Both the position numbers and the translations under genes were made by a program. Below, one piece after another: positions 21,726 through 23,603 of a stretch of DNA of 64,000 bases. The DNA is from Escherichia coli (GTDB lineage Bacteria > Pseudomonadota > Gammaproteobacteria > Enterobacterales > Enterobacteriaceae). Each line of letters opens with the position of its first letter. The first letter of the stretch is position 1. The stretch lies in assembly GCF_003334355.1 (NCBI RefSeq), contig NZ_QOWP01000018.1; one strand, given 5' to 3'. The notes beneath the pieces were generated by a model that was not told the DNA's origin, searched no databases, and saw nothing but the letters and a program-made list of their open reading frames with translations.

Positions 21726-23603
21726 ATGTCTGCATCTTCGGTTAAGCCGTTAAATGTTCAATTACCCGCAATAACCCTTATCCTTTTTGCGCTCTGTGTT
21801 GGGATATTTTGTTACCTCGCACAATGGATGAGTTATGAAGAAGTCGATCAATCCGCACTTATCCATCTCGGCGCTAACGTTGCTTCTCTCACGTTGTCGG
21901 GTGAACCCTGGCGTTTATTGAGCAGTGTCTTTCTGCACAGCAGTGTTTCTCATCTGCTGATGAATATGTTTGCATTCCTGGTGGTGGGGGCAGTGGCGGA
22001 ACGGATACTGGGGAAATGGCGACTCCTGATTATCTGGTTATTCTCCGGCGTCTTTGGTGGGCTCATCAGCGCCTGTTATGCGTTACGCGATAGTGAGCAG
22101 ATAGTCATCAGCGTTGGGGCATCCGGAGCAATTATGGGAATAGCTGGCGCTGCGATAGCAACACAGCTTGCTTCAGGTACGGGCACGCACCATAAAAATC
22201 AGCGGCGAGTATTTTCTCTGTTAGGTATGGTGGCGCTGACACTGTTGTATGGTGCCCGGCAAACAGGAATAGATAATGCTTGTCACATTGGCGGCCTGAT
22301 TGCGGGTGGCGCGTTGGGTTGGCTGAGTGCGCGTTTATCTGGGCAAAACCGGCTTGTTACGGAAGGCGGGATTATTGTTGCGGGCAGTCTTCTTCTTACC
22401 GGGGCTATCTGGCTTGCGCAGCAGCAGATTGATGAATCAGTTTTACAGGTCAGGCAAAGCCTGCGTGAAGCGTTTTATCCGCAGGAGATTGAACAAGAGC
22501 GACGACAAAAAAAGCAACAGTTAGCGGAGGAACGCAACGCCCTCAAAGAAACATTACCCGCTCCGGTAAGTCGTCAACAGGCCAGTGGTGATTTGCTCGC
22601 TGAGATTGCCGATATCCATGATATGGCGATCAGTCGGGATGGTAATACGTTATATGCCGCTATTGAAAACACAAACAGCATTGTTGTGTTCGACCTCGGA
22701 CAAAAGAAAATCCTGCATACCTTTACAGCGCCCATAGCGAAAGAAAAGTCAGTCAAACATTGTGGTGGCTGTAAAGATCAGGGCGTCAGATCGCTGGCGT
22801 TAAGCCCGGATGAAAAGTTGCTTTATGCGACTTCATTTGAAGCGAATGCGTTATCGGTCATTAACGTGGCGACGGGGGAGATTATTCAGTCGATTACCAC
22901 CGGTGCACATCCTGACAGCCTTATCCTCTCGCGTGATGGCAAAAAAGCCTGGGTGATGAATCGCACCAGTAATAGTGTGTCAGCGATTGATCTGGTGACT
23001 TATCAGCATGTGGCGGATATCCCGCTGGAGAAATACGACGGGACGGGGACGAGCGGTAAACCTGGTGCCTGGGTTATGGCACTTTCCCCGGATGAAAAAA
23101 CATTGTTGATACCCGGTATGGTCAGAGGTGACATTGTACGCATCAATACCATCACGCATCAGAAAGAAGACTTTCCCGCAGGTGATGCGCGTGGAACGAT
23201 ATCGGCGATGCGTTTTCGACCTGAAAACGGGGATGTAATTTTTGCCGACAGCCAGGGGATTTCACGTATAAGAGTTGGGGATCAGCAAGCCAGCATTATG
23301 ACGCAATGGTGTAGCAGGAGCGTTTATTCCGTTGAGGGTATTAGCCCGGACGGTCAGTATTTAGCGTTGGTGTCATATGGCTTGCAAGGTTATGTCATCC
23401 TGCTCAATATTAATGTCGGGCAGATTGTTGGCGTTTATCCTGCCAGCTACGTTAATCACCTTCGTTTTTCGGCGGATGGTAGAAAGATATTTGTTATGGC
23501 GAAGAACGGGTTAATCCAAATGGACAGGACGCTCTCGCTTGATCCGCAGGCAGTTATTCGTCATCCCCAATATGGCAATGTGGCTTGTATCCCTGAACCG
23601 TAA
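21726..23603 (+). CDS. Rhomboid-family intramembrane serine protease core (about 7 predicted TM helices) fused to a C-terminal YVTN/YncE-like beta-propeller
   Basis: 625-aa ORF with RBS; rhomboid motifs WRLLSSVFLH..HLLMNMF, GASGAIMG (GxSG Ser) and CHIGGLIAG (His); charged linker; about 40-residue repeats such as LSPDEKLLYATS..., ILSRDGKKAWV..., RFSADGRKIFV... Confidence 0.85.
   Translation: MSASSVKPLNVQLPAITLILFALCVGIFCYLAQWMSYEEVDQSALIHLGANVASLTLSGEPWRLLSSVFLHSSVSHLLMNMFAFLVVGAVAERILGKWRLLIIWLFSGVFGGLISACYALRDSEQIVISVGASGAIMGIAGAAIATQLASGTGTHHKNQRRVFSLLGMVALTLLYGARQTGIDNACHIGGLIAGGALGWLSARLSGQNRLVTEGGIIVAGSLLLTGAIWLAQQQIDESVLQVRQSLREAFYPQEIEQERRQKKQQLAEERNALKETLPAPVSRQQASGDLLAEIADIHDMAISRDGNTLYAAIENTNSIVVFDLGQKKILHTFTAPIAKEKSVKHCGGCKDQGVRSLALSPDEKLLYATSFEANALSVINVATGEIIQSITTGAHPDSLILSRDGKKAWVMNRTSNSVSAIDLVTYQHVADIPLEKYDGTGTSGKPGAWVMALSPDEKTLLIPGMVRGDIVRINTITHQKEDFPAGDARGTISAMRFRPENGDVIFADSQGISRIRVGDQQASIMTQWCSRSVYSVEGISPDGQYLALVSYGLQGYVILLNINVGQIVGVYPASYVNHLRFSADGRKIFVMAKNGLIQMDRTLSLDPQAVIRHPQYGNVACIPEP

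Follow-up and report, generated by a model that had tools for sequence, protein, structure and literature searches.

The window analysed here is a 64,000-nucleotide stretch of Escherichia coli DNA in which a 625-codon gene, referred to below as rhom7, lies with gltI on one side and lnt on the other (Table 1). RefSeq names its product a 'rhomboid family intramembrane serine protease', and judged by sequence the gene is orthologous to the one for Rhom7 in Shigella sonnei: proteins named as those of S. sonnei are 94-95% identical to its product at 100% coverage in a protein search, and in an S. sonnei contig the gene adjoins lnt, as it does in the window.

Table 1. Features of rhom7 and of the A-run within it (positions are those of the window)
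Feature	Position	Strand	Basis or remark
rhom7 ORF	21726..23603	+	625 aa plus stop; ORF list
Rhomboid catalytic domain, residues 59-201	21900..22328	+	Pfam PF01694, E = 2.3e-28
Seventh transmembrane helix, residues 209-233	22350..22424	+	AlphaFold2 helix; kept by all slip alleles
Charged helical linker, residues 237-286	22434..22583	+	AlphaFold2 helices 237-250, 253-276 and 283-286; alignment
A7 run, CAA AAA AAG = Q261-K262-K263	22507..22513	+	Sequence; slippage hot spot (probable)
In-frame A_AAA_AAG heptamer	22508..22514	+	AAA and AAG = codons 262 and 263; frame from ORF start
TAG stop after a -1 (or +2) slip	22522..22524	+	ORF list (ORF 22327..22524); slipped-frame translation
TGA stop after a +1 DNA slip, or after a ribosomal -1 slip on the intact allele	22589..22591	+	Sequence
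Beta-propeller, residues about 289-600, YVTN/YncE-like	22590..23525	+	Profiles, AlphaFold2; lost in all slip alleles

Architecture of rhom7 and position of the A-run

The product is a rhomboid intramembrane serine protease with a seventh transmembrane helix and a C-terminal beta-propeller, the latter being probably periplasmic to judge from the topology. Its catalytic dyad consists of S133 (in SVGASGAIMG, with the GASGA motif) and H187 (in DNACHIGGLI), both invariant across an alignment of 16 homologous sequences, while the NCBIfam models for GlpG and rhombosortase gave partial matches below their cut-offs. In the AlphaFold2 model (mean pLDDT 80) seven long helices up to residue 233 are followed by the linker helices and then by a beta-strand domain, with strands from 289 to 600. 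The propeller is also recognised by profiles, i.e. by NCBIfam TIGR02276 (beta_rpt_yvtn, E = 3e-16) and by Pfam propeller families (YNCE, Lactonase, Beta-prop) that span about residues 292 to 612, and the linker in front of it is charged and variable among the aligned homologues.

According to Liu et al. (EMBO J 2020, PMC7232013), S. sonnei Rhom7 (SSON_0610) is a 7-TM rhomboid protease, with seven predicted TMDs, that removes orphan HybA and FdnH subunits, and its catalytic residues carry the same numbers, S133 and H187. The two are the same gene, sharing the dyad, the seven TM helices and the C-terminal domain, and the S. sonnei copy also spells CAA AAA AAG at the run. What differs is the subject of interest, here the population-level frameshift alleles in E. 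coli; term searches of that paper turned up neither the A-run nor any naturally truncated allele, and the word 'propeller' is not used in it.

The first-pass annotation of the window had described an uninterrupted run of eight A in the linker, at 22508-22515. The linker does contain an uninterrupted run, but it is an A7 (Table 1), and the interval given would read AAAAAAGC, not eight A. That the run encodes Q-K-K(-Q) is borne out by codons 261-263 (CAA AAA AAG), and so is its proposed place between protease core and propeller, since the Pfam domain limits and the AlphaFold2 model put it after the core (plus TM7), inside the second linker helix (253-276), and ahead of the propeller. It is the longest mononucleotide run within rhom7. 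An enrichment of such runs in the window was considered and rejected, because AAAAAAA has 18 matches on both strands against 20.0 +/- 5.5 expected from dinucleotide-preserving shuffles (A/T runs of 7 or more number 15 separate ones).

Slip alleles and their frequency

As had been predicted, a slip of one nucleotide in either direction leaves a rhomboid-only ORF, which follows both from translation of the slipped frames and from the intact and slip alleles that were read. Changing the window's run to A6 or A9 brings a stop at residue 265 (..QKSNS*, at the TAG), whereas changing it to A8 or A5 brings one at residue 288 (at the TGA). The same TAG, 9-11 nt downstream of the run, terminates every -1 allele, and the resulting product of 265 aa consists of 262 native residues followed by SNS, NNS or SSS, thus keeping the complete rhomboid core and TM7 without the beta-propeller; the product that ends at the TGA has 288 aa, with a 25-residue out-of-frame tail. 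Proteolytic activity may survive in the truncated 265-aa proteins, given that removal of the C-terminal domain from S. sonnei Rhom7 does not abolish cleavage of a model substrate (PMC7232013).

Of 5,426 complete E. coli genomes 3,238 have the gene, while 40% lack it. Run alleles were counted in the complete gene-bearing genomes by exact-match BLAST with 86-88-nt queries and a '>=99%' identity band, whereby in the A8>A7 and A8>A9 searches the band count is one above the number of matches listed at 100%, and +1 variants are counted only on the A8 and the B2-flank A7 haplotypes. Variation in run length between strains, for which the first-pass annotation had proposed to look, was found in at least 115 of 3,235 genomes (3.6%), made up of 34 A8>A7, 7 A8>A9 and 74 A7>A6, and natural slips are commoner than that annotation, which understated their frequency, had implied. 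In about 96% of the gene-bearing genomes the frame at the run is intact.

Intact alleles carry either A7 (CAA AAA AAG) or the synonymous A8 (CAA AAA AAA, followed by CAA), the latter in 898 of 3,235 genomes; across strains, the forms seen besides the window's own are A8, A6, A9, A5 and interrupted ones. The A8 backgrounds comprise the 898 intact genomes, 34 with A7 and 7 with A9. For the A7 haplotypes, where the denominators taken from identity bands are upper bounds, the at most 1,346 genomes with B2 flanks include 6 A6 and no A8, the at most 893 with GGC flanks include 1 A6, and with window-type flanks there are 67 A6 versus 50 intact genomes. A8 backgrounds show slip variants roughly ten times as often as A7 backgrounds do, and the variants are mostly -1, deletions outnumbering insertions. 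Of the 74 A7>A6 genomes 67 form one clade, which has the window's own haplotype and includes E. coli HS; that -1 alleles are so widespread on this haplotype (67 of 117) could reflect positive selection rather than drift, an observation that goes against plain slippage.

A sample of 59 evenly spaced full-length copies contained six frameshifted ones, four of which have a -1 slip in the run. Three frameshifted copies at first seemed to have a deleted G beside the run, a reading that was dropped, since intact synonymous A8 alleles show them to be A8>A7 contractions. Such contractions have at least four separate origins, being found on at least four gene backgrounds; in three of these an intact A8 sibling is 0-4 nt away, and for the allele of E. 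coli W the closest relative among the sampled copies differs by 36 nt. In 13 of the 14 slip alleles read, restoring the run gives an intact 625-codon ORF; clean alleles of this kind would also be expected from a reversible switch, and to that extent do not favour a mere hot spot. For strain ATCC 8739 one assembly gives A8 and a second gives A9, which may be within-strain switching (again at odds with a mere hot spot) or an assembly error.

Beyond the complete genomes, 2 of 43 metagenome contigs are A6, and an exact protein look-up (NCBI, Logan, ENA) placed the 265-aa products on at least 1,000, 559, 433 and 100 public contigs, the first being the A6 product of the window haplotype and the second the W-type product; the window-type +1 product was absent from the protein collection by the same kind of look-up. 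In the protein search the truncated products were not separate clusters, being absorbed into larger 90% clusters, and it was the exact look-ups that found them.

Probable replication slippage in a dispensable gene

Following these results, the A-run is most probably a mutational hot spot of the ordinary replication-slippage type, located in an accessory gene that the cell can do without, and not a regulated switch. The run itself would then be no more than the incidental spelling of two lysine codons and one glutamine codon in a linker helix, at which slips presumably arise through strand slippage during replication, and the slip alleles would persist because selection on rhom7 is weak. Weak selection, and with it the status of a dispensable accessory gene, is suggested by the absence of rhom7 from 40% of E. 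coli and by its being broken elsewhere in other strains: K-12 has IS5D where rhom7 sits elsewhere, and other lesions lie at 22787 and at 23049, with a 5-nt deletion elsewhere. Selection nevertheless seems to keep the frame in most strains, because ~96% of rhom7 copies are in frame at the run, whereas a T8 run outside coding sequence is free to vary in length, with T7 in 39% of genomes; in the core gene nagA an A7 run is shortened in 1 of 5,425 genomes.

Mutation-accumulation work of the Foster laboratory has shown that longer runs in E. coli have exponentially higher indel rates (PMC8510543), and the slip alleles resemble frameshift pseudogenes made at mononucleotide runs of E. coli in that the longest run of rhom7 takes four of the six frameshifts, that A8 stands about tenfold above A7, and that deletions exceed insertions. 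They differ from such pseudogenes in leaving a complete catalytic module, and not a plainly dead fragment, since the lesion coincides with a domain boundary. No sign of a regulated or reversible use of the run was found in the alleles, the census or the orthologue comparison.

The A-run does not appear to be a conserved signal either. The syntenic orthologue of K. aerogenes has CAA CAA AAG CGG at this position and another orthologue has CAA GAG AAG CGG, i.e. the run was not found in the two orthologues compared outside Escherichia, and within Escherichia interrupted or shortened forms occur (CAT AAA AAG and CAA AAG AAG). A contig scan for rhomboid-propeller homologues gave, among the matches listed, distant Budvicia, Cedecea, Janthinobacterium, Burkholderia and others, and no other Escherichia species, and so dates the run within Escherichia only in part.

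The slippage mechanism is in this case a textbook one and does not change the view of genomes. Its products are of more use: since a natural protease-only slip allele, encoding just the rhomboid core and TM7, is found in E. coli HS, in W and the industrial strains derived from it, and in ECOR29, while many strains have the full protein and K-12 has none, there is a ready-made allelic series for probing the role of the unexplained periplasmic beta-propeller of Rhom7.

Other readings of the run

Adaptive domain loss would mean that truncation is positively selected in some lineages, loss of the propeller or of the whole protein being advantageous and the run being the easiest route to it. On the window haplotype A6 does exceed the intact allele (67 vs 50), at least 1,000 contigs carry its product (against 559 for the W-type product), the retained N-terminal part of the HS-clade has only a synonymous change, and loss of the whole gene in 40% of genomes points the same way. 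Yet the frame at the run is intact in about 96% of the gene-bearing genomes, the size of the clade may reflect sampling and clonal expansion, and at least one slip allele has lost the rhomboid part too. With substitution counts too small for a dN/dS test, selection for truncation seems unlikely.

It is rather less likely that the run is a selected, reversible phase-variation switch between full-length and propeller-less Rhom7. Homopolymeric-tract contingency loci are known from Neisseria, Haemophilus, Campylobacter and Helicobacter, and the run resembles them in that it lies within an ORF, that it differs by -1 and by +1 between strains in several backgrounds, and that the frame changes with it. 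Furthermore, the slip falls exactly at a domain boundary, the OFF product being plausibly an active protease, most slip alleles are without a second lesion, and the two ATCC 8739 assemblies disagree (A8 vs A9). However, the run of rhom7 is short (7-8), at the lower limit of the lengths found in contingency loci, and sits in the middle of the gene, not close to its 5' end; the window has no more A7 runs than expected by chance, and the run is missing from orthologues and interrupted in some Escherichia alleles. Moreover, the OFF state is stable in whole clades, which have acquired secondary damage. In the 67 genomes of the A6 clade, which are stably OFF, the propeller part that is no longer translated has C349W in its conserved HCGGC motif, besides further private non-synonymous changes. 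One A7 slip allele has an internal stop as a second lesion. Slip frequency follows run length, as plain mutation would. Nothing found points to a programmed or reversible switch, and the earlier reservation stands that such a run is short by the standards of classical phase variation.

A weaker form of the same idea, in which the A7/A8 run is a low-rate but used switch, with the help of leaky -1 slippage, ribosomal or transcriptional, at A_AAA_AAG or A_AAA_AAC, is just as improbable. If true, it would amount to domain-level phase variation of an intramembrane quality-control protease, with lineages toggling Rhom7 between a propeller-bearing and a propeller-less, catalytically active form.

Recoding, i.e. 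dnaX-like programmed -1 ribosomal frameshifting or transcriptional slippage, through which intact alleles would also make the 288-aa isoform and -1 alleles would be partly rescued, is very improbable. The heptamer is identical to the dnaX slippery site and in the correct frame (PMC6924986). A -1 ribosomal shift on the A7C allele (A_AAA_AAC) would restore ..QKKQQ.. and with it the full protein, and the transframe peptide predicted for a -1 shift on the intact allele contains QKKATVSGGTQR. The dnaX site also has an upstream SD-like element and a downstream stem-loop as stimulators; rhom7 has no recognisable ones, and the heptamer is not conserved in it. No downstream stem-loop was found at 22514-22600, whose minimum free energy of -16.7 kcal/mol is weaker than the -20.7 averaged by the shuffles (z = +1.28), 185 of 200 shuffles folding at least as well. 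SD-like stimulators of the dnaX type are spaced roughly 10-14 nt from the heptamer, and the nearest SD-like AGGAG (22483-22487) lies 20 nt upstream, outside that range. The heptamer is present in 68 E. coli genes (PMC9307594), of whose many in-frame copies this is one, and without a stem-loop its frameshifting is greatly reduced (PMC6924986). Neither the heptamer (alleles AAA AAA, AAG AAG and CAT AAA AAG; K. aerogenes CAA AAG CGG) nor the -1 product is conserved, the -1 frame tails differing (283 vs 288 aa), and propeller-damaging changes build up in the A6 clade. A dnaX-like programmed frameshift at the run was therefore rejected.

Homopolymers are a classic error site in long-read assemblies, and the disagreement between the ATCC 8739 assemblies, as well as the origin of four of the six B2-type A6 genomes in the N-series of one project, would fit such errors, but an assembly artefact is extremely improbable as a general explanation and was rejected, because independent assemblies agree (W in two projects plus derivatives, HS three times), slip alleles share linked SNPs (C349W and I400I), slips also occur in short-read-style metagenome contigs (2 of 43), truncated products are found by exact protein counts on hundreds to thousands of NCBI, Logan and ENA contigs, and only 1 of 5,425 genomes has a shortened A7 in the nagA control. 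For annotators this means that 'frameshifted' rhom7 calls are mostly real, recurrent single-site events rather than assembly noise.

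The adenine run and its consequences for the protein

Frameshifts in rhom7 (the E. coli orthologue of Shigella sonnei Rhom7), a dispensable accessory gene, fall predominantly at one hot spot, the A-run in the linker. Slips there have repeatedly given heritable 'rhomboid-only' alleles in natural E. coli, some of which are common. The first-pass annotation read the meaning of the run correctly, apart from its length: it had placed an uninterrupted A8 at 22508-22515, and the run is indeed uninterrupted, but direct reading of the window (...GAG CGA CGA CAA AAA AAG CAA CAG TTA...) gives A7, one base having been mis-measured. 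In itself the run is not unusual, since AAAAAAA occurs 18 times on both strands of the window versus 20.0 ± 5.5 in dinucleotide-preserving shuffles, and the 64 kb hold 15 separate A or T runs of at least 7.

Features of rhom7 and of the control runs (window coordinates)
Feature	Position	Strand	Remark
gltI-lnt interval	21347-23729		contains rhom7
rhom7 ORF	21726-23603	+	625 codons (ORF listing)
A7 run	22507-22513		codons 261-263 (Q-K-K)
A_AAA_AAG heptamer	22508-22514		in frame
TAG stop	22522-22524		after -1 A (or +2)
TGA stop	22589-22591		after +1 A (or -2)
Codon 349	22770-22772		C349W, TGT>TGG
1-base deletion	22787		O104:H4 2009EL-2071
1-base deletion	23049		EcPNK004
T8, non-coding	31302-31309		adjoins tRNA-Met gene
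nagA run	36497-36503		core-gene control

RefSeq genes named 'rhomboid family intramembrane serine protease' are 100% identical to the window ORF, and proteins named Shigella sonnei match its product over the full length at 94-95% identity. Pfam matches are the Rhomboid domain over residues 59-201 (E = 2e-28) and, from ~292 to 612, families of beta-propellers; NCBIfam finds YVTN propeller repeats. An AlphaFold2 model (16 homologues; mean pLDDT 80) predicts seven long helices, the last at 209-233, followed by linker helices 237-250, 253-276 and 283-286 and by beta-strands from 289 to 600. The run falls within predicted helix 253-276, so that its proposed position, with the protease core and TM7 on one side and the propeller on the other, is supported by both domain matches and model. 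Either slip leaves a protein with the entire rhomboid core and TM7 and without the propeller (265 residues after loss of one A, 288 after gain of one), just as had been anticipated. The catalytic residues, S133 and H187, carry the same numbers as those of Rhom7 (SSON_0610) in Liu et al. 2020 (PMC7232013), according to which cleavage of a model substrate persists in Rhom7 without the C-terminal domain, or without both TM7 and that domain. The natural allelic series of rhom7 is a resource for the uncharacterised C-terminal propeller.

Among the matches listed, genome contigs of Budvicia, Cedecea, Janthinobacterium, Andreprevotia, Iodobacter, Chromobacterium, Burkholderia and Paraburkholderia encode the same rhomboid, seventh TM and beta-propeller layout at 27-33% identity, so the fusion is an old one with a wide distribution among Beta- and Gammaproteobacteria.

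Run-length alleles in E. coli

The gene, flanked by gltI and lnt (as is the Klebsiella aerogenes orthologue, with 50% identity), is present in only 3,238 of 5,426 complete E. coli genomes and missing from 2,188; K-12 MG1655 has IS5D (insH3) in its place (NC_000913.3 684500-691500). From the ranked list of all 3,238 matches, 60 evenly spaced records were examined; six of the 59 full-length copies are one base short, all tagged 'frameshifted' by RefSeq. Alignment puts four of these six deletions at the run. Intact alleles are spelled in two synonymous ways, CAA AAA AAG (A7, then G) and CAA AAA AAA CAA (unbroken A8, then C). AR_0369 is A7>A6; a 'deleted G' beside the run in E. coli W, ST865 and UTME-12 was rejected, as comparison with intact alleles of other lineages shows an A8>A7 contraction.

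Complete genomes were then counted with 86-88-nt queries in the '>=99%' identity band, which amounts to exact matches because any single difference falls below 99%; +1 alleles were counted on the A8 and B2-type A7 backgrounds.

Genomes per run-length allele and flanking sequence
Background	Intact	-1	+1
A8	898	34	7
A7, B2-type flanks	at most 1,346	6	0
A7, GGC flanks	at most 893	1	
A7, window's own flanks	50	67	

Summed over these backgrounds, the run has slipped in at least 115 of ~3,235 gene-bearing complete genomes (3.6%), and the length variation that the first-pass annotation suggested seeking in related genomes therefore exists. The 67 window-flank genomes with a -1 slip include PCN061 as well as three assemblies of E. 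coli HS. An exact pattern scan of metagenome contigs (43 copies) gave 30 A7G, 10 A8, 2 A6, both on window-type flanks, and one CAA AAG AAG. Exact look-ups in a 15-billion-protein collection found the 265-residue product of the window type on at least 1,000 contigs, of the W type on 559 and of two more types on 433 and 100, the +1 product of the A8 allele on 19 and the B2-type A6 product on 21, and no +1 product of the window allele.

E. coli W has one and the same slip allele in two independent genome projects and in its derivatives, and three HS assemblies likewise agree with one another. The equally long nagA run is shortened in 1 of 5,425 genomes, so that at this scale assembly error at A7 can be neglected. 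At least four gene backgrounds carry A8>A7 alleles; they are at least 36 substitutions apart, and three of them have an intact A8 sibling 0-4 nt away, which indicates at least four independent contractions. The window-type A6 alleles, on the other hand, go back to one event, since all those sampled share C349W and a synonymous I400 change. Unconstrained runs of T8 length drift freely: the T8 in the Gln/Met/Leu tRNA operon is T7 in 2,095 of 5,425 complete genomes, a frequent length polymorphism, versus ~96% of rhom7 copies in frame at the run, so that most lineages are still under selection for the full protein.

Two ATCC 8739 assemblies differ (NZ_CP022959.1 A8, intact; NZ_CP043852.1 A9, frameshifted), which may reflect either a change in the laboratory or misassembly of the homopolymer. 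One of 3,244 rhom7 matches is a plasmid record rather than a chromosome. NZ_CP026085.1 and NZ_CM135829.1 (~4.83 Mb) are labelled 'DH5alpha', probably wrongly, as they carry the W-type A7C rhom7 and K-12 lacks the gene. Copies of 95% identity (A8) on short contigs of a 'Proteobacteria bacterium' MAG (JAFAEO010000050.1) and a 'Collinsella sp.' MAG (JAIJJM010000497.1) are most likely bin contamination.

Decay, switch or programmed signal

The run-length data fit mutation together with weak selection; adaptive loss of the propeller, a reversible switch and recoding at the run are all unlikely, and positive support was found for none of them. The mechanism itself is already familiar, and the novelty lies in the specific case and its natural allelic series. 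Beyond its stop, in the untranslated propeller part, the A6 clade has C349W in the conserved HCGGC motif (in all sampled HS-type alleles, i.e. A6 genomes on the window's haplotype; most orthologues keep both cysteines) and private non-synonymous changes, and one A7C allele has a second lesion. Such lesions look like decay and not like an OFF state that is being maintained.

Recoding is suggested by the heptamer in the window allele, which is the slippery sequence of dnaX, but the dnaX stem-loop has no counterpart here (the 87 nt 3' of the run fold no better than shuffles, z = +1.28), the closest AGGAG lies 20 nt upstream of the heptamer, as many as 68 genes of E. coli contain this heptamer (PMC9307594) and it shifts poorly without its stem-loop (PMC6924986). 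Nor is the run conserved across orthologues, with CAA CAA AAG CGG in K. aerogenes, CAA GAG AAG CGG in another orthologue, CAT AAA AAG in a copy labelled E. fergusonii and a different charged linker in homologues further away (16-homologue alignment). Slips in the census are, moreover, ~tenfold more frequent at A8 than at A7, which fits the exponential dependence of the E. coli indel rate on run length (PMC8510543). Further inactivating lesions of rhom7 lie away from any run of at least 5; among them are the 1-base deletions in O104:H4 2009EL-2071 and EcPNK004, one deletion of 5 nt, and premature stops in copies from both genomes and metagenomes.
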